From the NCBI GenBank assembly GCA_900315345.1, contig OMYP01000004.1, forward strand, positions 33,922 through 97,921: 64,000 bases of DNA, given 5' to 3'. This DNA is from an uncultured Selenomonadales bacterium. Lineage in GTDB: Bacteria > Bacillota > Negativicutes > Acidaminococcales > Acidaminococcaceae. The position numbers were made by a program, and so were the translations under genes. Positions 18,677 through 35,025 of this stretch are shown here, piece by piece (the stretch's first letter is position 1; the number at the start of each line of letters is the position of its first letter). The notes beneath the pieces are model-generated. The model was not told the origin of the DNA, made no database searches, and worked only from the letters and a program-made list of their open reading frames with translations.

Positions 18677-18701
18677 TAGTCACAAGTTAATATTTTTATT
18701 T

Positions 18702-19028
18702 GGCTGTGAAGAGAAGAGTACGCAGAGGAAAATGCCACAGAGAGCTTTCGGTTTGGTGCAAGAAAGCGCAGGGAACTTTGCCGAAGATGGCCTTGGAGCC
18801 GGCTGGTCGAAGTAATTAAGACCGCCCGGGCGCACCCGTTACAGTGCTGGGGTATTCAAGGAGAAGTTCCCGCGTGCCCGAGAAGCTAATCTGATAAATT
18901 TATTTTTGCTGCTCGCGGTATCAGGGGAAAGAACCCGCGTACCCGAGGAGGCCGGACGTGTGAGCGTCCGGTGAATATGGGTGGTAACACGATGCCTTCG
19001 TCCCATTTGGGGCGGAGGCGTTTTTTAT
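18702..19028 (+). ncRNA. T-box riboswitch, Met-specific
   Basis: AG box (agagag), GGTGNRA motif (ggtgcaa), specifier codon ATG at 18787-18789, T-box aatatgggTGGTaacacg at 18974-18991, terminator gccttcgtccc...ggggcggaggcgtttttt. Sits upstream of metA. Confidence 0.9.
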
Positions 19029-22770: not shown

Positions 22771-23388
22771 ATGAAAATCCCGTTGCGATACCAGATTTCT
22801 GAATACGATTGCGGGCCTACTTCGCTTTTAAATGCGATGAGCTTTCTGTTTCAGCGGGAGGAAATCTCTCCGGAACTGATTCGCAACATCATGCTGTATT
22901 CCCTGGATAGCTATGGTAGCGGTGGTGTTTTGGGAAAGAGCGGCACCTCCCGTATGGCTATGGCGTTTCTTAGCAACTGGCTGGATGGGGCAGGCAAGAC
23001 TGGAATCCTTCCCATTACAAGCAGGCATCTTTCCGGGAAGGAAGTCTGGCTTGGAAATCAAAGCCTGATTGTGGAAGCTCTTCACAGGAATGGTGCGGCT
23101 GTAGTGCGGCTGCTTTTTGAAGGCGAGCATTATGTACTCCTTACCGGTGAAAAGGAGGGATACGTTTTCCTGTTTGATCCTTATTATCTGCCGGATGGTC
23201 CGTTGTCAGAAGAGGTCGACAGTACGTTAGACCAGCATTTTCGTTATAACCGCATCGTTCCGTTTTCCTGCTTCAACCGGGAGGAAGGGCTGTACGCTCT
23301 GGGCCGCGAAGAAGACCGGGAAGCCGTGCTGATTTTTAATCAGCACACCATGCTTACGCCAGAAAAAAATATTGAGTATTTTATTTAA
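22771..23388 (+). CDS. Peptidase C39-like (papain-fold) protein without a transporter domain
   Basis: Q..EYDCGPTS (Cys), EHYVLL (His) and FDPY (Asp) form a putative catalytic triad. Confidence 0.75.
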   Translation: MKIPLRYQISEYDCGPTSLLNAMSFLFQREEISPELIRNIMLYSLDSYGSGGVLGKSGTSRMAMAFLSNWLDGAGKTGILPITSRHLSGKEVWLGNQSLIVEALHRNGAAVVRLLFEGEHYVLLTGEKEGYVFLFDPYYLPDGPLSEEVDSTLDQHFRYNRIVPFSCFNREEGLYALGREEDREAVLIFNQHTMLTPEKNIEYFI

Positions 23389-23392
23389 AAAC

Positions 23393-24460
23393 ATGAGAAA
23401 AATTATTGTGGGCATGTCCGGCGGTGTTGACAGCGCGGTAACCGCTTATCTGCTGAAAGCCGCCGGATTTGACGTTACGGGGATCACGCTGCGCACCTGG
23501 TCGGGCGCAGACGGGGAGGAGAGCCGTTGCTGTGAAATTAGCGACGCCATGCAGGTGGCGCAGCAGATAGGAATTCCGTATTATGTGCAAAACTGCGTGG
23601 CCTGCTTCCGGAAAAATGTGGTAAAACCTTTCACTTCGGCCTATCTGCAGGGCAGGACGCCCAATCCCTGTGTGGACTGCAACCGCTTTGTCAAATGGGA
23701 GCAGATGATTCTGGCAGCGGAACGCATGCGGGCGGATTATGTAGCAACAGGGCACTATGCTTCTGTGGTCCGCCTGCCTAATGGGCGGTTTACGGTACGG
23801 CAGGCTGCCTTCAGTAACAAGGACCAGACCTACATGCTGTACCGCCTGACGCAGGAACAGCTGGCCCGTACCTTGATACCCCTGGGCAGATTGAGCAAAG
23901 AAGAAGTGCGGCAGATAGCCGAGAAAGCAGGACTGCCTGTGGCGCATAAAAAAGATTCCCAGGAGATATGTTTTGTGGCCCGGGGAGGCTATGCAGAGTA
24001 TATTGCCAATGAGACGGATACGGAAATCCTGCCGGGAAATTTTGTGGATGAACAGGGCAGGGTGATCGGACGGCACAAAGGCATCATCCATTATACGGTA
24101 GGGCAGCGAAAAGGACTGGGTCTTGCACTGGGTCATCCCGCTTACGTGAAAGCGGTGGATGCGGCAAAAAATGAAGTTGTAATCGGGGACGAACAGTCTC
24201 TGTATTGCCGTGAAATACTATGCGATGAAGTGAATTTTATGAGTGTTCCTGATATCGGACCAAAGGAAAAACTGCGGGCGACTGTAAAGATCCGCTATCA
24301 CCATCAGGGGGAAGCCGCCATCATATGCCGGGATGCAGCGGAGACCGTCCGTGTTATTTTTGATAAACCGGTAAAAGCCGCGACCCCGGGACAGTCTGCC
24401 GTATTTTATGATGAAAATAACTGTGTTATAGGCGGCGGGAAGATTGAGGCGGTGATATAA
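23393..24460 (+). CDS. mnmA: tRNA-specific 2-thiouridylase
   Basis: GMSGGVDS PP-loop, CC, TPNPCVDCNR, ATGHYA, KDQTYML, DSQEICF, HYTVGQRKGLG and TPGQSAVFY. Confidence 0.93.
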   Translation: MRKIIVGMSGGVDSAVTAYLLKAAGFDVTGITLRTWSGADGEESRCCEISDAMQVAQQIGIPYYVQNCVACFRKNVVKPFTSAYLQGRTPNPCVDCNRFVKWEQMILAAERMRADYVATGHYASVVRLPNGRFTVRQAAFSNKDQTYMLYRLTQEQLARTLIPLGRLSKEEVRQIAEKAGLPVAHKKDSQEICFVARGGYAEYIANETDTEILPGNFVDEQGRVIGRHKGIIHYTVGQRKGLGLALGHPAYVKAVDAAKNEVVIGDEQSLYCREILCDEVNFMSVPDIGPKEKLRATVKIRYHHQGEAAIICRDAAETVRVIFDKPVKAATPGQSAVFYDENNCVIGGGKIEAVI

Positions 24461-24595
24461 GGATGATATTGGAGAGAAAAATAACATTAATAAAAAATTA
24501 AAGAAATACGCTTTTTTTTAACCTTAAAACATATAAATCCGATATGAAAACGGAGGTTAAAATAAAAACTGTTTTGAAGGAGACAAGAAAATAGA

Positions 24596-25411
24596 ATGAA
24601 AAAAATAATTTTACTTATCAGTTTCTTATTTATAGGTATTTTGCTTGCAGGTTGCGGCAGCGATAATAAAAAAGCAGAAAAGCCTGCCGCAAAAGAAATC
24701 AAGATTGGCGCGACGGCAGGACCGCACGCGCAGGTCGCAGAGGCAGTGGCCAAAGAGGGGAAAAAGCAGGGACTGAATATTAAGGTGATTGAGTTTTCTG
24801 ATTATATTACACCGGATAAAGCGCTGGCGGACGGTGAAATTGATCTGGTAAGCTATCAGCACAAACCATTTATGGAGAATTTCAACAAACAGAACAAATC
24901 GGATCTGGTAGCCATTGGCAAAACGATTTTGATGCGGATGGGTATTTACAGTAATAAGTATAGGGATTTGAAGAATCTGCCGGAAAATGCCATTATCGCG
25001 ATTCCTAACGACCCGACGAACGGAGGCCGCGGTCTGGTCCTGCTGGAAAAGGCTGGGCAGATTAAATTGAAGGACGGCGTCGGTTTTAAAGCCACAGCCA
25101 AAGATGTTGTGGAAAATCCGAAAAAGTTCCGGTTTAAAGAACTGGAAGCGGCTCAGCTTCCTCGCAGCCTTCCGGATGTGGACGCTGCTGTCATTACCAT
25201 GAATTACGTTATGAGCGGCGGACTGGATGTGCAGAAACAGGGACTGTTCTGGGAAACGAAGGATGAACCGCTGGCGGTTATGATCCTGGCCGTAAAGGGC
25301 AAAGATAAAGATAACGCGACCTATCTGAAAATTGCGGAACTGTTCCGTTCTGAAGGCGTGCGCAAATATATAGCAGATACCTTTAAGGGAACAATAGTAC
25401 CGGCGGAATGA
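24596..25411 (+). CDS. metQ: MetQ/NlpA-family methionine ABC transporter substrate-binding lipoprotein
   Basis: Lipobox LAGC, IGATAGPH, FSDY..P..AL, YQHKPF and IPNDPTNGGRGL. Confidence 0.9.
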   Translation: MKKIILLISFLFIGILLAGCGSDNKKAEKPAAKEIKIGATAGPHAQVAEAVAKEGKKQGLNIKVIEFSDYITPDKALADGEIDLVSYQHKPFMENFNKQNKSDLVAIGKTILMRMGIYSNKYRDLKNLPENAIIAIPNDPTNGGRGLVLLEKAGQIKLKDGVGFKATAKDVVENPKKFRFKELEAAQLPRSLPDVDAAVITMNYVMSGGLDVQKQGLFWETKDEPLAVMILAVKGKDKDNATYLKIAELFRSEGVRKYIADTFKGTIVPAE

Positions 25412-25465
25412 TCATCGGGAAAACAGAGAATTGCAATGATTCAGGCTTGTAACGGAGGAGTTCGG

Positions 25466-26833
25466 ATGGCTTCACATGTAATTGATAATCTGTTGCTGCA
25501 GGACAGTTTTGGAACAGATGAAATGAGAATGGTCTGGAATGAAAAGAACCGATTACAGAAGCAGCTTGATGTAGAACGGGCGTTAGCTGAAGCAGAGGGA
25601 GAACTGGAAGTGATTCCCCAAGAAGCTGCGGCGGTAATCGCTTCGGTTGCAGACAGCAGACGGTTCGATTTACAGGAATTGGCTCACGCAGGACTTACTT
25701 CCAAACACAGTCTGATTGCCACAATAAAAAAATTGCAGGAACTGGCTGGTACGGCAGGAGAGTTTGTGCATTACGGCGCCACGACACAGGATATTGTGGA
25801 TACCGGTACCGTGTTGCAGTTAAAAGAGGCGCATCAGATCATTCGGCGGGATTTGAAGAAACTGTTGTATAAAATGACATCTGCCGCCGCGCAATATAAG
25901 ACGGTACCAATGGCGGGGCGCACGCATGGAGTACAGGCGCTTCCCATAACGTTTGGCTTTAAGCTGTCAGTCATTGTCTGTGAACTGGGGCGGCATCTGG
26001 AGAGGCTTGAAGAACTGGAACACAGAGTGTTTGTCGGTGTGTTGTGCGGTGCTGTAGGCACATACGCTTCTTTTGATGGGAGAGGCAATGAAATTGAGGC
26101 AAATGTTATGAAAAAGCTGGGACTGGCTGTGCCGGAAATTTGCTGGCATGCATCCCGGGACCGTTTTGCCGAGTATGCTTCTGTTTTATCCTTATTAAGT
26201 GCTACCCTTGGTAAACTTGGTCATGAGTTTTATACATTGATGGCCACGGAAATTGACGAGGTAGAAGAACCGTTTTCCAAAGGAACCATTGGGTCGTCAA
26301 CCATGCCGCAAAAAAGGAACCCTGCCTTGCTGGAAGGGCTGGCAAGTCTGACCAGGCCTGTATTTTACAGTGCGGCGCTGGTACGTGAAGCAATGTTGAT
26401 GGAACATGAACGGGATGCCATGGCCTGGCGTGCAGAGTGGATTGCACTGCCGGAAATCTGTATCTATATTGCCCGCCAGCTGGGGAGCGCCCTTGTACTT
26501 TTTGACGGTTTGCAGGTCAAAACGGATAACATGCGGAAAAATCTGGATATATCAGGCGGTCTGATCGTTTCGGAAAAGATCATGTTTGAGCTGGGAAAAT
26601 TTCTGGGAAAACAGACTGCGCATGCTCTTGTATATGAACTGGCAATGACGGCACAGGAACAGGAAATCCCTTTTGCCGTGTTATTGAAGCAGAATGAAAA
26701 GGTCCGCAGATATTTGAGTGAACAGCAGATTGCCGCATTGCTGAATCCGGCTAATTATCTGGGAGAAGCGGCAGAAAAGGTTGAGCAGGTATTGGCGCTT
26801 GCGAAAGCAAAGGGATGGATGGACGGGGCCTGA
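25466..26833 (+). CDS. Adenylosuccinate-lyase-like fumarase-superfamily lyase, candidate S-(2-succino)cysteine lyase
   Basis: HYGATTQD, GRTHGVQA and the signature GSSTMPQKRNP. Context with GNAT, MmgE/PrpD and a polar amino acid ABC transporter. Confidence 0.8.
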   Translation: MASHVIDNLLLQDSFGTDEMRMVWNEKNRLQKQLDVERALAEAEGELEVIPQEAAAVIASVADSRRFDLQELAHAGLTSKHSLIATIKKLQELAGTAGEFVHYGATTQDIVDTGTVLQLKEAHQIIRRDLKKLLYKMTSAAAQYKTVPMAGRTHGVQALPITFGFKLSVIVCELGRHLERLEELEHRVFVGVLCGAVGTYASFDGRGNEIEANVMKKLGLAVPEICWHASRDRFAEYASVLSLLSATLGKLGHEFYTLMATEIDEVEEPFSKGTIGSSTMPQKRNPALLEGLASLTRPVFYSAALVREAMLMEHERDAMAWRAEWIALPEICIYIARQLGSALVLFDGLQVKTDNMRKNLDISGGLIVSEKIMFELGKFLGKQTAHALVYELAMTAQEQEIPFAVLLKQNEKVRRYLSEQQIAALLNPANYLGEAAEKVEQVLALAKAKGWMDGA

Positions 26834-26900
26834 AAGTAAAAATTATAGAAAAGCATTCCTGGGATTTTTAATGAGTCAGGGGGCAGAAAGGAAAACGAAA

Positions 26901-27392
26901 ATGAACCAGGTGTTCAGAGCACTTGAAGAAAATGATATAGAAGAATTTCACCGCTTCCTGACTGCGGCGTATGCGGAAGATTTGCAGTATGGAATTTATT
27001 TTCAGGCTGCTTTTGCTACTATAACTGATATAACAACGCATCTGATCAATAATCTCTGTTATGTTATGGAACAGGACGGGATTATTATCTCATCCTGCTC
27101 TCTGAGGATGCCCTGGGGACCAAATCCGGGTCCGGAGATATTTCCACATTTAGGATGGGTGTCGACGCGTCCGGAATACAAGCATCAGGGCTTTGGTTCA
27201 AAAATGCTGGACTGGGTAGAACAGGAGATTCTGATAAAGCAGATGAAAGCGCCGGCAGTAACTTTGGGAACTGCAGAAGAACATCCCTGGCTGATCAGGA
27301 TGTATGAGAAACGGGGATATGTTGCGTTTGAAAAACGCAGGCTTCATGAAGACCATATTACGGTTTATATGAAAAAAATATTACGTCCGTAA
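26901..27392 (+). CDS. GNAT-family N-acetyltransferase (YxeL-like)
   Basis: Acetyl-CoA motif VSTRPEYKHQGFGSKML, LGTAEEHPWL..MYEKRGY and RMPWGPNPG. Confidence 0.88.
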   Translation: MNQVFRALEENDIEEFHRFLTAAYAEDLQYGIYFQAAFATITDITTHLINNLCYVMEQDGIIISSCSLRMPWGPNPGPEIFPHLGWVSTRPEYKHQGFGSKMLDWVEQEILIKQMKAPAVTLGTAEEHPWLIRMYEKRGYVAFEKRRLHEDHITVYMKKILRP

Positions 27393-27416
27393 TAAATGGA
27401 AAAAAGGTGAAAAACA

Positions 27417-28787
27417 ATGGGGAAAGGTAAACTGACGGAACAGTTGGTCAGTCTTGTTGTCGAAACCGGTGAAACGGAAGCAAAACCGGCTTTTGCAATT
27501 GGCAGACAGGGGCTATTGGATTTTCTGAGTGCGGCCTGGAAGGGAAAAGCACAAAGGGAAACTGACCGTCTGCTGCGCTATGTTTCCGGTTCCGGACAGT
27601 CATTGCTGCTTGCTTCTGAACAGGGCGCCAGTGCCGAGCTCAGTGCATTGTATAATGGATATCTTGGACATTATCTGGACTACGATGATGTAAATCAGAC
27701 AATCAGAGGCCATCCATCAACAGTTCTTTACCCTGCGCTGTTGTCTGTGGCCTCGCTGCGCCCGGTTTCCGGCAGGCGTTTTCTGGCTGCTTATGTTATC
27801 GGCGTAGAGATAATGGCGCGGCTGGCCAGAGTAATGGGGAAAGCGCATTACCGGAGGGGGTTTCATAATACCGCAACACTGGGCGTACTGGCCGGAGCAA
27901 TGGCTGTCGGGTATCTTCTTCAGCTGGATAACGAAAAGCTGCTTAATGCAATGGGGATTGCGGCTGCGCAGGTCAGCGGGCTTCGCCTGAATTTTGGGAC
28001 AGAATGCAAACCGTTACAGGCCGGCATTGCGGCTCAGAAAGGAGTTCAGGCAGTATTGCTGGCAGAACTCGGTATTACAGCAAGTCATACTGCTTTGGAT
28101 GGAGATAAAGGTCTATTATCTTTATATGGTAACGGCATCCGGGCTGATACAGCAGAAATTTTGCTGGGTAACTGGGGGAAAAAATGGGAGTTATGCAATA
28201 CAGGCCTCTGGTTTAAGCTGTACCCATTTTGTTCAGCAGCCAGCCATATTGCAGATTCTGCGAAGCAGTTATATCAGAGGGGAGGATTTTCGCCGGAGGA
28301 AATACAGAAGGTTGCGCTGTTTTTTCCACCGGGAGGAGATGCTGCGCTGATTCACAGGCGTCCGGCAACCGGTGAGGAAGGCCGGTTCAGTGCAGAATAT
28401 GTGGCGGCGGTGGGACTGAACGGATTATCGTATACGCTGGAAAATTTCAGCTCCAAGCCGGTATCTGCTTATTTGCAGCAATTTATGGAAAGGATAGAGC
28501 GACGGTATGACGATGCTGTTATTCCTGCTAAAACCGCATTGCCGCCTGGGCGTTTTGGCATTGTGCAATTGTATTTAACAAATGGCGGCATCAGGGAAAA
28601 CCGGACAGATACGCCCAAAGGATCGCCGGGCAATCCGCTGACGGCAGAGGAGCAGTATCAGAAACTGCAGGCATGCTGTCCGGCGGAAATTGCAGAGAAA
28701 TTACCGGATGAGATTAAAGTGCTAGATAATATTTCTGACATGAGTGGTCTGATACAGATTTTAAAAACAGAAATATCTGCGAACTGA
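27417..28787 (+). CDS. MmgE/PrpD-family protein (YxeQ-like)
   Basis: GHYLDYDD, GHPS, GFHNTATLG, NFGTECKPLQAG, KLYPFCSA and GRFSAEY. Confidence 0.9.
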   Translation: MGKGKLTEQLVSLVVETGETEAKPAFAIGRQGLLDFLSAAWKGKAQRETDRLLRYVSGSGQSLLLASEQGASAELSALYNGYLGHYLDYDDVNQTIRGHPSTVLYPALLSVASLRPVSGRRFLAAYVIGVEIMARLARVMGKAHYRRGFHNTATLGVLAGAMAVGYLLQLDNEKLLNAMGIAAAQVSGLRLNFGTECKPLQAGIAAQKGVQAVLLAELGITASHTALDGDKGLLSLYGNGIRADTAEILLGNWGKKWELCNTGLWFKLYPFCSAASHIADSAKQLYQRGGFSPEEIQKVALFFPPGGDAALIHRRPATGEEGRFSAEYVAAVGLNGLSYTLENFSSKPVSAYLQQFMERIERRYDDAVIPAKTALPPGRFGIVQLYLTNGGIRENRTDTPKGSPGNPLTAEEQYQKLQACCPAEIAEKLPDEIKVLDNISDMSGLIQILKTEISAN

Positions 28788-28822
28788 TCAATAGATTATA
28801 AAAGAAATGAGGGGGCATTAAA

Positions 28823-29626
28823 ATGAAGATAAATAAAGTTTTAGGGACTTTGGTGACAGTAATCCTTGCAGCAGGACTGATTGCAGGGTGCGGTAGTAGT
28901 GAGAAAAAGGCAGCGCCGTCTCCGGAAAAGGTAATCAGGGCAGGCTGCACAGGTGTGAGCTATCCGGATTCTTTTAAGGAAAATGGAAAATTGACCGGTT
29001 ACGATGTGGAAATATTAGAATTGGCTGCTAAAAACCTGGGCTACAAGGTCGAGTGGGTTAATACCGATTTTGCGGGTCTGATCGGTCAGCTGGACGCAGG
29101 AAAGATTGACACGATTGCTAATAATGTGTCTATAACTCCGCCCCGTAAGGAAAAATATTATTTTTCTGAGCCGTTTCTGTATGAAGGAACCCAGTTTGTA
29201 GCACATAAAGACAATAATGAGATTAACAAAGTTGAGGATTTATTTGGGAAAACAGTTGCCGGGGTTGCAGGGTCCAATCATTTAAAAGTTGTAGAACAGG
29301 CCTATCCGAATGGAAACATTAAAATCCGAACTTATGAAAACCGGGATGGAGCCATGAATGACCTGATCAATAAGAGGGTTGACGGATATGTTAATGCCAG
29401 AAATGTTTTGGTGGCTACTATCAAGAAAGCCAATCTTCCCTTTAAGTTGGTTGGAGATTTGTTTGTGATTCGTCCTTCCGCATATCCTTTTCTGAAAAAT
29501 GAAAAGGGTAAAAAACTGAATGATGAATTTACAAAAGAGATTCAGCGGTTAAGAAAAGATGGAACAATGAAAAAAATCTCTGAAAAATATTACGGAACTG
29601 ATGTAAGTGTCAATCCTGGCAAATAA
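28823..29626 (+). CDS. Polar amino acid ABC transporter substrate-binding lipoprotein (YxeM/TcyA-like)
   Basis: Lipobox IAGC, GKLTGYDVEI, LDAGKID and YYFSEPF. Confidence 0.9.
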   Translation: MKINKVLGTLVTVILAAGLIAGCGSSEKKAAPSPEKVIRAGCTGVSYPDSFKENGKLTGYDVEILELAAKNLGYKVEWVNTDFAGLIGQLDAGKIDTIANNVSITPPRKEKYYFSEPFLYEGTQFVAHKDNNEINKVEDLFGKTVAGVAGSNHLKVVEQAYPNGNIKIRTYENRDGAMNDLINKRVDGYVNARNVLVATIKKANLPFKLVGDLFVIRPSAYPFLKNEKGKKLNDEFTKEIQRLRKDGTMKKISEKYYGTDVSVNPGK

Positions 29627-29732
29627 AAACGATGCTTGCATTAAACACGGCTGCCTCGTCAAAATGTACCGGGCAGCCGTATCTGTAAAGAAATAGCCGG
29701 GTTGTGATAACTAATGCGGGGAGTTGCAAGGA

Positions 29733-30398
29733 ATGACTTTTGATATTAAGTATATGTTAGATGTCTTAAAGGAAATTATTCCCTATACACCAATTACTCT
29801 GTTTCTGGCAATAGCTTCAATGCTATTAGCTGGTATATTAGGTCTGGGAATTGCCTTGGTAAAACAATTCCAGATTCCTGTTCTGAAACAGATGGTGGCA
29901 GTCTATGTATCTTTCTTCCGTTCCATTCCAACTATTGTAGAATTGTTTCTGATTTATTACGGCTTACCGCAAGTCTTTCCGGTTTTCTCCAAAATGGAGG
30001 CGTTATCTGCCACTATTTTGGGATTGAGTCTGAAAAATGCAGCATATTTATCTGAAATTTTTCGGGCCGGATTGCTATCGGTAGATGACGGACAGATGGA
30101 AGCCTGCATCGGTGTTGGTATTTCCAAATTGTATGCGTATCAGCATATTATCCTGCCGCAGGCTTTGCAAAATGCATTACCGGGTATGAGTAATACGTTT
30201 ATCAGCGTTATAAAAGAAAGTTCCCTGGCATTTACACTGGGACTGGTAGATTTGTTTGCACAGGCAAAATTAATTGCATCTGACTCGTTCCGCTTTTTTG
30301 AAGCATATCTGGCTGTCGCGGTTATTTTCTGGGCTCTCGTTGTTATCATGACTTTGTTTCAGCAACGTCTGGAAACATATATGCAGAGATATAGGTAG
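29733..30398 (+). CDS. Polar amino acid ABC transporter permease
   Basis: VSFFRSIP, YYGLP, AAYLSEIFRAG, GQMEAC (EAA loop) and IKESSL. Confidence 0.9.
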   Translation: MTFDIKYMLDVLKEIIPYTPITLFLAIASMLLAGILGLGIALVKQFQIPVLKQMVAVYVSFFRSIPTIVELFLIYYGLPQVFPVFSKMEALSATILGLSLKNAAYLSEIFRAGLLSVDDGQMEACIGVGISKLYAYQHIILPQALQNALPGMSNTFISVIKESSLAFTLGLVDLFAQAKLIASDSFRFFEAYLAVAVIFWALVVIMTLFQQRLETYMQRYR

Positions 30399-30410
30399 GG
30401 GATTGAAATT

Positions 30411-31163
30411 ATGCTGAGGATAACAAAACTGCGCAAAAAATTTGGAAACCTGGAAGTTTTAAAAGGCGTTGACCTGACTGCTGAACAAGGGCAGGTCGTT
30501 GCGATTTTAGGCTCTTCCGGTTCCGGAAAAACCACGTTATTAAGGTGTTTAAATTTTTTGGAAACACCGGAAGAGGGGAATATTAAAATTGGAGATGTGA
30601 GTATTGATGCTAAAAATTATTCTTCCCGCGAGGTAAATTTACTGCGGCGGCAATCAGCCATGGTGTTTCAGCACTATAATCTTTTTCGTAACAGGACTTG
30701 CCTTCAAAATGTTACGGAGTCATTACTGGCCAATAAGATAATGGATAAAAAGAGTGCTGAAGAATATGGCCTGAAGATTTTGCGCAAAGTCGGTCTTGAA
30801 AATAAAAAAGATGTTTATCCGTCAAAGTTATCAGGTGGGCAGCAACAACGCGTAAGTATTGCCCGTGCTTTGGCAGTGAAACCCCATGTTATCCTTTTTG
30901 ATGAACCCACTTCTGCGTTGGATCCGGAACTGGTTGCGGAAGTTCTGAATTCGATTCGTGCTATTGCAGAAGCCCGTACAACGACAATGCTGATTGTCAC
31001 TCATGAAATGAATTTTGCAAAAGAAGTCGCAGACAAAATTGTTTTTATGGATCAGGGGAGAATTTTGGAAGAAGGAACACCAGAGCAGATATTCCGTTCG
31101 CCGAAAAACGACCGTACACGGCATTTTTTAAGCAGATATCTGCTTCCTGAATACAATATATAA
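30411..31163 (+). CDS. Polar amino acid ABC transporter ATP-binding protein
   Basis: [30 protein letters not shown] and THEM. Confidence 0.93.
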
Positions 31164-31206
31164 AGTTGCGTAAAGACAGAATTGTTTCGCAGGAAAGGAT
31201 TGGAAA

Positions 31207-31470
31207 ATGGAAAAACTGATCGTGTACGGAAGTCTTCACTGTCCTGATACCCAGGCAGCATTAAAGAAGCTTACAGAAAGCAAAATTGAATATGCATTTA
31301 AAAATATTTCCGGTGAGCTGGAGAATTTGAAAGAATTCCTGAAACTTCGTGACACAAACACACTGTATGAAAGGATTCGTCAGGAGGGACGCATAGGAAT
31401 ACCTTGTTTTGTGCAACAGAAAGAGAAAATTACATTAAATTTAATGGAAGTATTGGACGCCAACAAATAA
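31207..31470 (+). CDS. Glutaredoxin-related small protein
   Basis: 87 aa. YGSLHCPD single-Cys motif and IGIPCF (cis-Pro loop). Confidence 0.75.
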   Translation: MEKLIVYGSLHCPDTQAALKKLTESKIEYAFKNISGELENLKEFLKLRDTNTLYERIRQEGRIGIPCFVQQKEKITLNLMEVLDANK

Positions 31471-31507
31471 GCCTGTTCCTGATGTATTTGAATGCGAGGG
31501 CAAAAAT

Positions 31508-31540
31508 ATGGAGTTTTCAACATTATGCGTACACGGAGGA
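31508..31540 (+). pseudogene. 5' remnant of a Cys/Met-metabolism PLP enzyme (cystathionine gamma-synthase family)
   Basis: After a gaggg SD-like sequence, ATG encodes MEFSTLCVHGG, resembling this family's N-terminus (compare MetY KFETLQLHVG in this window). The frame then runs into the antisense strand of purF. Confidence 0.55.
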
Positions 31541-31558
31541 CTTGCCTTTTACAACAAT

Positions 31559-32968
31559 TCAATCTCCGCACCGGAAAGGAAATGGATTCCCTTCCGGTAT
31601 CTCCATGGGATAGTTTCCATCAAAGCAACCGGTGCAGATGGGGAGCCCCTTTACCATTTCAGATAACGCATGGATGTCAAGATATCCTAATGAATCCGCA
31701 TCCAGCATTTGCCGGATATCCTCCAATGAATAGTGGTTGGCGATCAGTTCTTCGCCGGAAGAAACATCTGTGCCGAAATAGCAGGGGTGGCGGAACGGCG
31801 GGGAGCTGATCCGTACATGGACTTCCCGGGCGCCTGCGTCTTTCAGCATTTGTACGAGATGTTTCATGGTGGTGCCCCGGACAATGGAGTCGTCTATCAG
31901 GACGATGCGTTTTCCGGCAACGGCCGCCTGCAGTACGCTGAGTTTCATATGTACGCTGTTCTCCCGCTCTTCCTGGGAAGGCTTGATAAACGTCCGGCCG
32001 ATATAGGAATTTTTATAAAAAACAAAGCCGAAGGGGATGCCCGAGGCTTCCGCATAGCCTTTGGCGGCAGGCAGTCCCGATTCAGGAACGCCGGTCACCA
32101 GGTCTGCTGCCACAGGGTGCGATTCTGCCAGCGCTTTTCCTGCAGCGATACGGGCGTCGTAAACGCTGACTCCGTCTATACAGCTGTCCAGTCTCGCAAA
32201 ATAGATGTATTCAAAAATACAATGGGCGCATTTTTCCTGTTGAAGGGAATCATCGGATTCTATTCCTTCTGCAGAGATGGTAACCAGTTCCCCCGGCTCG
32301 ATGTCCCTGATGAATGTCGCACCCGTGGCGGTAAGGGCGCAACTTTCCGAAGCCAGCACATAAGCGTTGCCGCGTTTTCCCAGGCAAAGGGGCTTCAGTC
32401 CGAAGGGATCCCGTAACCCCATCAGCTTTTTAGGGCTCATGATGACCAGCGCATAGGCGCCGATCAGTTTGCGAGCAGTGGCTAATACGGCTTTCTGTAT
32501 GGTTTTTGCATGTACTCTTTCTTTTGCCAGATAAAAGGCTATCACTTCCGAATCTGCGGTAGTATGGAATACGGCGCCGTTTTGGACCAGTTCCCATTTC
32601 AGGTCGGCGGTGTTTACCAGATTGCCGTTATGGGCCAGGGCCAGCGTTCCTTTTATGTAAGAAATCACAAGAGGCTGGGCGTTTTCCGGTCTGGAACCGC
32701 CGGTGGTAGAATAACGCACATGGCCGACGCCCAGATTGCCACGGATTTCTTTCACATTTTTTTCATGGAACACTTCGCTGACAAGACCTGCATCTTTGAG
32801 GCACTGGCAGTTCCCGACGGGACCCTGTGTGTTTGAAACTGCCATGCCGCAAGCTTCCTGGCCCCGATGCTGGAGGGCCATCAGTCCGTAATAAATGGAA
32901 TGGGCGACGTCAGCGCCGTTCAAATCAAAGATACCGAAGACGCCGCATTCTTCTTTTGGCTTATCCAT
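31559..32968 (-). CDS. purF: Amidophosphoribosyltransferase
   Basis: Propeptide KEECGVFG, LQHRGQE, GHVRYST, HNGNL, CIFEYIYFAR, DDSIVRGTT and CTGCF. Confidence 0.95.
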   Translation of the reverse strand: MDKPKEECGVFGIFDLNGADVAHSIYYGLMALQHRGQEACGMAVSNTQGPVGNCQCLKDAGLVSEVFHEKNVKEIRGNLGVGHVRYSTTGGSRPENAQPLVISYIKGTLALAHNGNLVNTADLKWELVQNGAVFHTTADSEVIAFYLAKERVHAKTIQKAVLATARKLIGAYALVIMSPKKLMGLRDPFGLKPLCLGKRGNAYVLASESCALTATGATFIRDIEPGELVTISAEGIESDDSLQQEKCAHCIFEYIYFARLDSCIDGVSVYDARIAAGKALAESHPVAADLVTGVPESGLPAAKGYAEASGIPFGFVFYKNSYIGRTFIKPSQEERENSVHMKLSVLQAAVAGKRIVLIDDSIVRGTTMKHLVQMLKDAGAREVHVRISSPPFRHPCYFGTDVSSGEELIANHYSLEDIRQMLDADSLGYLDIHALSEMVKGLPICTGCFDGNYPMEIPEGNPFPFRCGD

Positions 32969-33035: not shown

Positions 33036-34835
33036 TTAAAGGGGATAATCCTGCAACGCGTCAAATCCTTCTTCGCCTGTACGGATTTTAACTACGTTGT
33101 CGACAGTGGAGATGAAAATCTTTCCGTCTCCGTATTTACCGGTGTAAAGGACTTTTTTTGCTATATCAATGATCGTGCGGGGCGGAATGGCGGAGACAAC
33201 GATGTCCAGGCGGATTTTAGGCAGCAGCCGTGAGGCGACGGATGCGCCCCGGTACATTTCCGTATGGCCTTTTTGCAGTCCGTAACCATGGACCTCTGTG
33301 ACTGTCATACCGGTAATACCGATATTTTCCAAAGCGGTTTTCAGCGACAGGAAGCGTTCTTTGGACGTGATGATGGTTACAAGGGAATAGGCGTGGCCGT
33401 CAGGCGTTGCGGGACGGGATGCCGGATTCGTTTGGGAAAAGAGGCGAGGCATTCTGTTTGCAACTGTAGTCGAATCTTCTGTCGCTGCGGGCATATGCTC
33501 CGGCGCTGGCATGAAATCGGCGTAAGCAGAGGTGAGGCCGTGTTCTTCAAAATCCAGTCCGGCGATTTCTTCTTTGGCAGTTACCCGCAATCCAATGGTA
33601 GCTTTAATTGATTTAAAGACGATGCCTGCTGCGATCGCCACATATACAATGACGGCGATGACGCCGGTAAGCTGTACAATAAAAAAGTGGGGATCGCCAC
33701 AGTAGAGCCAGCCGTCCTGTTTAGACAGCAGGCCGGTGAATACGGTACCCAGCGCGCCGCAGACGCCGTGTACCGAAACGGCGCCGACAGGATCGTCGAT
33801 TTTCAGCTTCTGGTCGATGAATTCAATGGAATAGACTACGACAATTCCGGCAATGAGGCCGATAGCGAACGCGCCGGGTACGGTGACCAGGTCGCAGCCA
33901 GCTGTAATAGCTACCAGACCTGCCAGTGCTCCGTTCAATGTCATGGAAACGTCAGGCTTTCCGTAGCGGATCCAGGTCAGGAACATGACGGTGCAGGTGG
34001 CGACAGCGGCGGACATGTTGGTGGTTACGAAAATGTGCGCGGCAGACTGGATCGCTTCGTCACCGGTCATGCTGACGGTAGAACAGCCGTTGAAGCCGAA
34101 CCAGGCGAACCAGAGTATGAACACTCCCAGGGTCGCAAGGGGCAAACTGTGGCCGGGAATAGCATTGACAGTTCCGTCTTCATTGTATTTGCCGATACGG
34201 GGCCCCAGCAGCCAGGCGCCGATGCAGGCACAGACGCCGCCTACCATATGCACCGCGGTGGAACCGGCAAAATCGTGAAAGCCCATCTGGGCCAGCCAGC
34301 CGCCGCCCCAGATCCAGTGGCCGGAAACCGGGTAGATGATCAGGCTGATGAGGATGCTGTAAATGCAGTAGGAAGAAAATTTTGTACGTTCTGCCATGGA
34401 CCCGGAAACGATGGTGGCGGCCGTCGCGCAGAAAACAGTCTGGAAGATCAGAAATGCCATGGCGGGATAGCCGGCATCTTCCGCAACGGTAAAATGTGTT
34501 GCAAAAAAATCCGGACTGCCAATGATGCCGTTAATATCTGCCCCAAACATGAGTCCGAAGCCGATGATCCAGAATACCGGCGTACCCAAAGCGAAGTCCA
34601 TCACATTTTTCATAACGATATTGCCTGCGTTTTTAGCGCGGGTCAGACCCGTTTCGCACATGGCAAAACCTGGCTGCATAAAAAATACCAGGGCGGCGCC
34701 CAGCAGCACCCAGATCGTGTCTGCAGACGAATATCGCAAGGGAAGTGGGTCCGCTGCAAAAGCAGGCGCGGGAATCAGGCTGAGGCAAAGTACGGCCGGA
34801 ATAATTTGAAACAATAAGCTACCCGATTTTTTCAT
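33036..34835 (-). CDS. amtB: Ammonium transporter AmtB fused to a C-terminal PII (GlnK-like) domain
   Basis: FMQPGFAM.ETG, DFAGSTAVH, WFGFNG, NGALAGLVAITA and DDPVGAVSVHG, followed in frame by GITGMTV..V.GYG.QKG..EMYRG, LLPKI and GKYGDGKIFI...VKIRTGE. Confidence 0.93.
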   Translation of the reverse strand: MKKSGSLLFQIIPAVLCLSLIPAPAFAADPLPLRYSSADTIWVLLGAALVFFMQPGFAMCETGLTRAKNAGNIVMKNVMDFALGTPVFWIIGFGLMFGADINGIIGSPDFFATHFTVAEDAGYPAMAFLIFQTVFCATAATIVSGSMAERTKFSSYCIYSILISLIIYPVSGHWIWGGGWLAQMGFHDFAGSTAVHMVGGVCACIGAWLLGPRIGKYNEDGTVNAIPGHSLPLATLGVFILWFAWFGFNGCSTVSMTGDEAIQSAAHIFVTTNMSAAVATCTVMFLTWIRYGKPDVSMTLNGALAGLVAITAGCDLVTVPGAFAIGLIAGIVVVYSIEFIDQKLKIDDPVGAVSVHGVCGALGTVFTGLLSKQDGWLYCGDPHFFIVQLTGVIAVIVYVAIAAGIVFKSIKATIGLRVTAKEEIAGLDFEEHGLTSAYADFMPAPEHMPAATEDSTTVANRMPRLFSQTNPASRPATPDGHAYSLVTIITSKERFLSLKTALENIGITGMTVTEVHGYGLQKGHTEMYRGASVASRLLPKIRLDIVVSAIPPRTIIDIAKKVLYTGKYGDGKIFISTVDNVVKIRTGEEGFDALQDYPL

Positions 34836-34864
34836 GATGATCGATCCCTCTCTTTCAGAATACG

Positions 34865-34912
34865 AAAAAAAGCGCCTGATTGTGAGTGGATCACAATCAG
34901 ACGCCGATGTCT
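34865..34912 (-). terminator. Attenuator terminator in the amtB leader with an overlapping ANTAR-type hexaloop
   Basis: Minus strand gcgtctgattgtga-tccac-tcacaatcaggcgc plus T7. An alternative hairpin agac-ATCGGC-gtct lies at 34912-34899. Confidence 0.82.
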
Positions 34913-35025
34913 CGAACGAATTGATTTGGTAAATCTGCAAAAGCAATGCGCGCAAATTTAGCTTTGCAGACTTACAAATGTATGGTAACACTTTATTTAA
35001 AATCCGTCAAGATTTTTTGCGCAGC

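Follow-up and report, generated by a model that had tools for sequence, protein, structure and literature searches.

A candidate locus for oxygen-free salvage of S-(2-succino)cysteine

S-(2-succino)cysteine (2SC) is a stable adduct of fumarate and cysteine. Bacillus subtilis salvages it with the operon scmK-scmL-yxeMNO-scmP-yxeQ (PMC10221552), in which acetylation precedes cleavage of the C-S bond and deacetylation comes last (PMC10221552; PMC12757645); cleavage is performed by the monooxygenase YxeK (ScmK), which depends on flavin mononucleotide and O2 and yields oxaloacetate. A second type of locus without YxeK is known from Dickeya dadantii and Enterococcus italicus, whose class I lyases, termed 2SL, have been characterized; the D. 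dadantii enzyme (E0SKP1) cleaves N-acetyl-2SC (2SNAC) and complements B. subtilis yxeK mutants (Hillmann 2022, PMC9706529). 2SL and yxeK are inversely distributed, 2SL equilibria favor synthesis, and it has been reasoned that in an anoxic setting the O2-dependent YxeK might be ineffective while the lyase is unaffected (Hillmann 2022, PMC9706529). We analyzed a stretch of 64,000 nucleotides (contig OMYP01000004.1, positions 33,922-97,921 of the forward strand, assembly GCA_900315345.1; genome 98% complete), hereafter called the window. An initial annotation had noticed there genes for a PurB-like lyase, a GNAT acetyltransferase, an MmgE/PrpD protein, a three-gene ATP-binding cassette (ABC) transporter and a glutaredoxin-like protein, and had pointed to the yxe operon and the replacement of YxeK by a lyase, correctly as judged from the literature (Hillmann 2022, PMC9706529).

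All of the named genes were found at that place, intact and co-directional. Judged from the sequence of its canonical PurB (see below), the host is a Succiniclasticum-like member of the Acidaminococcaceae. Succiniclasticum is a strictly anaerobic succinate fermenter of the rumen. We consider it likely, with a probability of roughly 0.8, that the cluster serves the oxygen-free salvage of 2SC as an scm/yxe operon of the 2SL type. The lyase clade, the 2SL-type gene order and the presence of a separate canonical PurB support the earlier proposal that this anaerobe may recycle fumarate-damaged cysteine. The locus is thus a fresh example of an already described pathway, in an unusual host and in a rearranged layout without the deacetylase, and it would extend oxygen-independent 2SC salvage to a strict rumen anaerobe, a Succiniclasticum-like succinate fermenter.

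As in the 2SL-type loci of D. dadantii and E. italicus (Hillmann 2022, PMC9706529), a class I lyase, 55% identical to E0SKP1, is followed by a YxeL-type GNAT and a YxeMNO-type importer, YxeK is missing, and the predicted chemistry is independent of oxygen. In contrast to those loci, the window cluster contains no ScmP/YxeP deacetylase, its YxeQ homologue is located between the GNAT and the importer instead of at the end, and it has additional MetQ-like and glutaredoxin-like genes; furthermore, it resides in a strictly anaerobic member of the Negativicutes, a class in which the locus occurs in three sampled genomes only. The reaction logic would be that of the B. subtilis operon, and the YxeQ-type protein is highly similar to a 445-amino-acid B. 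subtilis MmgE/PrpD protein of solved structure (7BRA); however, the lyase is predicted to release fumarate, in contrast to the oxaloacetate formed by YxeK.

The lyase groups with 2SL

The window lyase and E0SKP1, which was reached through the cluster of a Dickeya zeae match, align without gaps over 450 amino acids; the UniRef name of E0SKP1 is N-acetyl-S-(2-succino)cysteine lyase. Three members of the fumarase/aspartase superfamily are encoded in the genome, namely a true PurB, the window lyase and an ArgH-like gene. The canonical PurB is located on contig C8, reaches 538 bits with the purB equivalog model TIGR00928, and is 94% identical to PurB of Succiniclasticum sp. and 88-99% identical to proteins of Acidaminococcaceae bacteria (94-98% in relatives). 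Although superfamily, fold, the signature loop GSSxMPxKRNP and the catalytic His (GRTHG) are common to both proteins, identity between the window lyase and the PurB on C8 is only 36%, and the lyase belongs to a separate clade.

A phylogeny against true PurB and 2SL enzymes, as had been suggested in the initial annotation, places the lyase inside the 2SL clade and apart from PurB, with which it had been expected to group if the salvage proposal were wrong. In a quick tree of 78 rows, a clade with a support of 100 in the Shimodaira-Hasegawa-like approximate likelihood-ratio test (SH-aLRT) unites the window lyase, E0SKP1, all 11 lyases that adjoin a GNAT gene (see below) and a natural lyase-GNAT fusion of Paenibacillus polymyxa. 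A careful maximum-likelihood tree of 44 rows recovers the 2SL clade with a support of 97/96, again with the window lyase, E0SKP1 and every GNAT-adjacent lyase in it. Here the metagenomic subclade of the window lyase and the 2SL group of Gammaproteobacteria are sister groups (100/97), and PurB lies beyond a 100/100 branch with a length of about 2.7 + 0.8. We also defined 17 signature positions from 25 reference sequences of the 2SL clade, none of them from the subclade of the window lyase. Each position has a conservation of 95% or more in these references, and its residue is shared by no more than 10% of 45 other homologues. The window lyase keeps 14 of the 17 residues, and the three differences are conservative (N/S, M/V, S/A). 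On the basis of these comparisons we regard the window lyase as orthologous to the characterized 2SL and not to PurB.

Annotation by profile models gives a different name. The window lyase scores 358 bits with TIGR00928, above the cut-off of 326, and its best models are XcbD (NF052536, 453 bits, cut-off 600) and PRK08937. Lyases encoded in 2SL loci of Lysinibacillus and Pectobacterium likewise reach 371-386 bits with TIGR00928 and 441-442 bits with XcbD, and NCBI records give the name adenylosuccinate lyase to the whole 2SL clade, the characterized Dickeya enzyme included. TIGR00928 over-reaches and mis-names 2SL enzymes.

A few genomes of the same family encode a distinct PurB-like paralogue whose identity to the window lyase is 41-43% (loci L095-L098 in G006, G037, G081 and G041). 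In the careful tree it falls neither with 2SL nor with PurB but in a separate 100/100 clade, and no GNAT gene adjoins it.

Gene order matches that of 2SL-type loci

Synteny was scanned in species-representative genomes, and the counts apply to the matches listed. All 11 loci with a lyase identity of at least 54% have a GNAT gene directly downstream (Niallia, Lysinibacillus, Trichococcus, Bacillus, Pantoea, Gilliamella with two loci, Pectobacterium with two loci, Paenibacillus and Zymobacter), and the GNAT gene is missing from all 69 loci with a lyase identity of 48% or less. The same importer (46-59% identity) is present in nine of the 11 loci, and a YxeQ homologue lies at most 5 kb away in five. 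The window GNAT is 37-50% identical to the lyase-adjacent GNAT proteins; for the importer, identities in the syntenic loci are 49-53% for the binding protein (nine loci), 46-57% for the permease and 51-59% for the ATPase. In the window, the counterparts of L (GNAT), of MNO (importer) and of Q (MmgE/PrpD) lie side by side on one strand. One Lysinibacillus locus (L005) has the order lyase-GNAT-binding protein-permease-ATPase-M20 amidohydrolase-MmgE/PrpD, which is the order of B. subtilis yxeKLMNOPQ with the lyase in the place of yxeK (scmK).

The lyase-GNAT fusion of P. polymyxa (P0031, 612 amino acids), annotated as adenylosuccinate lyase, gives Rosetta-stone support for a functional link between the two proteins. 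In Niallia-family genomes, weaker GNAT homologues (32-40%) adjoin luciferase-like monooxygenases and cystine-type importers, and these neighbors tie the GNAT family to the salvage of S-alkylcysteines in general. A comparison of the window GNAT with the PDB gave no match. From the sequences, the boundary of the 2SL clade can be drawn at a lyase identity of at least 54%, a GNAT gene immediately downstream and the 17 signature positions, and this boundary could be used to correct the mis-naming by TIGR00928.

Distribution, base composition and modularity of the locus

Comparison with related genomes, which had been recommended for this region, showed that the locus is accessory and patchy. Among 100 other genomes of the family, the lyase was found in two (86% identity), both of which belong to a sample of 13 congeners; an unrelated paralogue with 41-43% identity occurs in five further genomes. 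In a class-wide sample of 400 other genomes from 110 genera it was detected in the same two congeners only. Both carry cysK-mnmA-lyase-GNAT-PrpD at the same chromosomal position, with contigs that end inside the locus and do not reach its right-hand boundary. In both, the MetQ-like gene is missing between mnmA and the lyase, and a 205-amino-acid open reading frame (ORF) is missing between cysK and mnmA. Genome G089, which has the mnmA paralogue, shows a different neighborhood. The nearest non-metagenomic relatives of the lyase are found in Bacillales, Lactobacillales and Gammaproteobacteria.

The island had been described as richer in A/T than its flanks, and this difference is real but moderate: the G+C content (GC) is 44.7% for positions 24596-31470 and 44.5% for 25466-31540, compared to 51.3% in the remainder of the window and 49.1% in the genome, and 8% of genome windows of equal size have a GC as low as or lower than the island. 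GC at third codon positions (GC3) is more telling than overall GC. The island genes have GC3 values of 0.37-0.50, compared to a genome mean of 0.58 (standard deviation 0.08; 1081 ORFs of at least 300 amino acids), and flanking genes have values of 0.56-0.66. The importer genes are at 0.37-0.39 (0.38 for the SBP_bac_3 protein), which is within the lowest 2-3% of the 1081 long ORFs, whereas the GNAT, PrpD, lyase and MetQ-like genes are at 0.43-0.50; the enzyme module and the transporter module thus differ in composition. Because of the patchy distribution, with occurrence in two congeners only, and the low GC3, the locus was most probably acquired horizontally by a sublineage of the Succiniclasticum-like genus.

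A metagenome scan yielded three short loci. Two of them, L130 (4357-5867) and L131 (3540-5109), contain a lyase-GNAT-PrpD core that is about 85% identical to that of the window. The importer of L131 is 87-89% identical to the window importer, that of L130 only 32-38%, and L131 retains a MetQ-like remnant of 33 amino acids, located between the PrpD gene and that of the binding protein. These sequences suggest that modules are swapped within the locus and that the locus is modular.

A possible function of the YxeQ-like protein

Iminodisuccinate (IDS) and 2SC both carry a 1,2-dicarboxyethyl group, on the nitrogen of aspartate in the former and on the sulfur of cysteine in the latter. Degradation of IDS requires an MmgE/PrpD epimerase together with a stereoselective lyase. 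When a thiol adds to fumarate without an enzyme, both configurations should arise at the succino carbon, and fumarase-superfamily lyases are stereospecific. Since both configurations are expected from succination, since the lyases are stereospecific and since IDS degradation offers a parallel, we propose tentatively that the YxeQ-type protein may act as an epimerase of 2SC or 2SNAC at the succino C2; by analogy this is possible, although we regard it as less probable than not being so. If true, the epimerase would double the recoverable cysteine. It is the sole part of our interpretation that would be new biology, and it offers a concrete and cheap experiment on the function of a long-unassigned protein.

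The best solved relative of the window MmgE/PrpD protein is the B. subtilis structure 7BRA, termed 'IRG1' (395 bits, E 4e-117), followed by IDS epimerase (2HP0/2HP3, 188 bits). In the IDS catabolism of Agrobacterium tumefaciens BY6, the IDS epimerase (2HP0) likewise has a partner lyase, which removes a dicarboxyethyl substituent from a heteroatom; its substrate, however, is an N-linked synthetic chelator, and the stereoselective lyase cleaves a C-N bond. His99 (in RGHPS) and Tyr145 (in HY) of 2HP3, the proposed bases of IDS epimerase, are identical in the window protein and are kept in all YxeQ-like proteins of 2SL loci. The RGHPS His is widespread in the MmgE/PrpD family and is therefore consistent with an epimerase without discriminating it from other functions. 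Residues that matter in the mammalian cis-aconitate decarboxylase are not conserved. In this lineage the YxeQ gene is held tightly between the GNAT gene and the importer, though the deacetylase gene is outside the cluster. In the literature searched, the coverage of which was partial, neither a link to a 2SC epimerase nor any activity of YxeQ was reported, and stereochemistry is not discussed in the description of 2SL (Hillmann 2022, PMC9706529).

Predicted pathway and the deacetylation step

In the proposed pathway, the cystine-type ABC importer would take up 2SC, possibly helped by the MetQ-like binding protein. The GNAT enzyme would N-acetylate 2SC to 2SNAC, and the lyase would convert 2SNAC by beta-elimination into fumarate and N-acetylcysteine (NAC), which an M20 amidohydrolase encoded elsewhere would deacetylate to cysteine. 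As an accessory component, the YxeQ-like protein might epimerize the succino carbon and thereby make both non-enzymatic diastereomers usable by the lyase. From sequence comparison we infer the substrates, the transport specificity, the final amidohydrolase and the role of YxeQ. The 98%-complete genome contains no match to the YxeK family (Bac_luciferase, PF00296). A class I fumarate hydratase is encoded, so that the released fumarate can be metabolized.

The initial annotation rightly stated that a YxeP-type deacetylase is missing from the cluster, a gap that is less worrying than it had implied: four amidohydrolases above the cut-off of TIGR01891 are encoded elsewhere in the genome (C13:14431-15729, C13:49326-50447, C20:2484-3521 and C32:20804-21859), and ScmP, YhaA and YtnL of B. 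subtilis, which belong to this family, deacetylate NAC redundantly (PMC12757645). Because of this redundancy, a NAC deacetylase encoded in trans is plausible by analogy. The two amidohydrolases on C13 are candidates for this enzyme. One of them directly follows a MetQ/NlpA-like lipoprotein gene (pair at C13:48414-50447, L128:5415-7448) whose product is 41% identical to the MetQ-like protein of the window, a sequence resemblance that gives a weak hint of a link between this pair and the cluster. The other, C13:14431-15729, comes after a DcuC C4-dicarboxylate carrier.

Points against the assignment and alternative functions

Several observations weigh against a 2SC salvage operon. An identity of 55% does not have the power to fix substrate specificity in the fumarase/aspartase superfamily, a caution also stressed for 2SL (Hillmann 2022, PMC9706529). 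The cluster itself contains no M20 gene for a ScmP/YxeP deacetylase, and the four amidohydrolases encoded elsewhere reach an identity of only 26-29% with the ScmP homologues that other species carry within the cluster, with no clear orthologue among them. In the close relative L130 the transporter is swapped for one with 32-38% identity, so that its specificity for 2SC is not secure. Finally, the comparison with YxeQ depends on 7BRA, the 445-amino-acid B. subtilis MmgE/PrpD paralogue, which we take to be YxeQ from the gene lengths of B. subtilis.

The alternative that survives best is that the enzymes of the 2SL, YxeL and YxeQ families act on another dicarboxyethyl or related Michael adduct, such as an N-succino amino acid, another small thiol in succinated form or an adduct of cysteine with itaconate or maleate, and that 2SC is a side substrate. 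The window lyase belongs to its own metagenomic subclade with a long stem (0.32) and differs at three of the 17 signature positions, the transporter module is exchangeable, and the extra MetQ-like and glutaredoxin-like genes occur only in this lineage, all of which would fit such a function. However, the three signature differences are conservative, and both the lyase-GNAT pairing and the importer (46-59% identity) are conserved with loci that include the characterized Dickeya type; we therefore consider a different adduct rather unlikely.

A synthetic direction of the lyase, as in XcbD (3-sulfopropionylcysteine synthase) of bacterial coenzyme M synthesis, where a thiol and an activated alkene would give a sulfur metabolite, is very improbable. 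It would agree with XcbD as the top NCBIfam model and with the 2SL equilibria in favor of synthesis, but the XcbD score is below the cut-off and alike in the Lysinibacillus and Pectobacterium 2SL-locus lyases, the context is an importer and an acetyltransferase and not coenzyme M genes, and the clade sister to 2SL (L015, L017, L023 and L025) has no GNAT gene. A second adenylosuccinate lyase for purine synthesis, at which the TIGR00928 score, the name 'adenylosuccinate lyase' of all database homologues and the neighboring purF (31559-32968, opposite strand) might hint, can be dismissed as the least probable function in view of the true PurB on C8, the low identity to it and the long branch between them, the same misleading annotation of characterized 2SL enzymes, and the convergent orientation and normal GC3 of purF.

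Gene inventory and neighborhood

The genes of the 2SC salvage candidate are compiled in Table 1. The genes named in the initial annotation for 25466-31540 stand, but the start does not: the run begins earlier, at 24596, with a MetQ/NlpA-family lipoprotein gene 54 bp upstream of the lyase. All island genes between 24596 and 31470 are intact and co-directional with intergenic gaps of 12-97 bp, and no terminator-like site was found on the + strand in 24460-31470. We infer that 24596-31470 is co-transcribed. The transcription unit may open with the MetQ-like gene, whose membership in the system is uncertain. No Rfam riboswitch or leader element was found ahead of the cluster at gathering or E <= 1 thresholds. 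For the GNAT gene, the ATG listed in the table is preceded by a ribosome-binding site and was taken as the start instead of the ORF start at 26781. The nearest NCBIfam models of the importer genes are of the cystine TcyJ/L/N type.

Table 1. Genes of the island, with positions in the window
Feature	Position	Strand	Basis
MetQ/NlpA-family substrate-binding lipoprotein	24596-25411	+	Pfam Lipoprotein_9, 289 bits; ribosome-binding site GAAGGAG ahead of ATG
Lyase (Lyase_1 + ADSL_C), 455 amino acids, predicted N-acetyl-S-(2-succino)cysteine lyase (2SL)	25466-26833	+	Pfam; identity to E0SKP1
GNAT N-acetyltransferase, YxeL/ScmL-like, 163 amino acids, predicted 2SC N-acetyltransferase	26902-27392	+	Pfam Acetyltransf_1
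MmgE/PrpD-family protein, YxeQ-like	27417-28787	+	Pfam MmgE_PrpD_N + MmgE_PrpD_C
Polar amino-acid (cystine-type) ABC substrate-binding protein, YxeM-like	28823-29626	+	SBP_bac_3
ABC permease, YxeN-like	29724-30398	+	BPD_transp_1; nearest NCBIfam model cystine permease
ABC ATPase, YxeO-like	30411-31163	+	ABC_tran; nearest NCBIfam model TcyN
Small glutaredoxin-like protein, 87 amino acids, single CPDT cysteine motif	31207-31470	+	Weak Uxx-star glutaredoxin-like match

The glutaredoxin-like ORF scores 27.9 bits with the Uxx-star glutaredoxin-like model (cut-off 72), and its nearest ESM Atlas clusters are named 'putative glutaredoxin'. It shares the low GC of the island and has no homologue in any of the 11 syntenic 2SL loci among the matches listed. 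A selenoprotein reading was rejected, as the stop codon is TAA and a UXX tail is missing. A further ORF of 105 amino acids at 31492-31809 was taken as spurious; it has no family match and overlaps the 3' end of purF on the opposite strand.

The island adjoins cysteine and methionine genes. Upstream of it are a LysR gene, a T-box leader, metA, the gene for O-acetylhomoserine sulfhydrylase, cysK, the 205-amino-acid ORF and an mnmA paralogue; downstream, purF is convergent to the island. The T-box leader (18697-19008; 95.5 bits, gathering score 93) is located directly before metA, the sulfhydrylase gene and cysK and is the sole regulatory RNA nearby. The mnmA gene beside cysK (23372-24460) is a second copy, 45% identical to the other mnmA (C8:275206-276270). 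Orthologues of this extra copy (70-73%) were found in G067, G092 and G089 only, and most congeners have the other type alone; it is an accessory 2-thiouridine synthase-like gene within a sulfur-metabolism neighborhood. No NCBIfam model matches the 205-amino-acid ORF (22771-23388) located between cysK and mnmA; it is missing at that position in G067 and G092 and is 73% conserved elsewhere in G089. On the - strand at 33036-34991, a single ORF of 651 amino acids combines an Amt ammonium transporter (residues 91-487) with a C-terminal P-II domain (GlnB/GlnK; residues 537-643).

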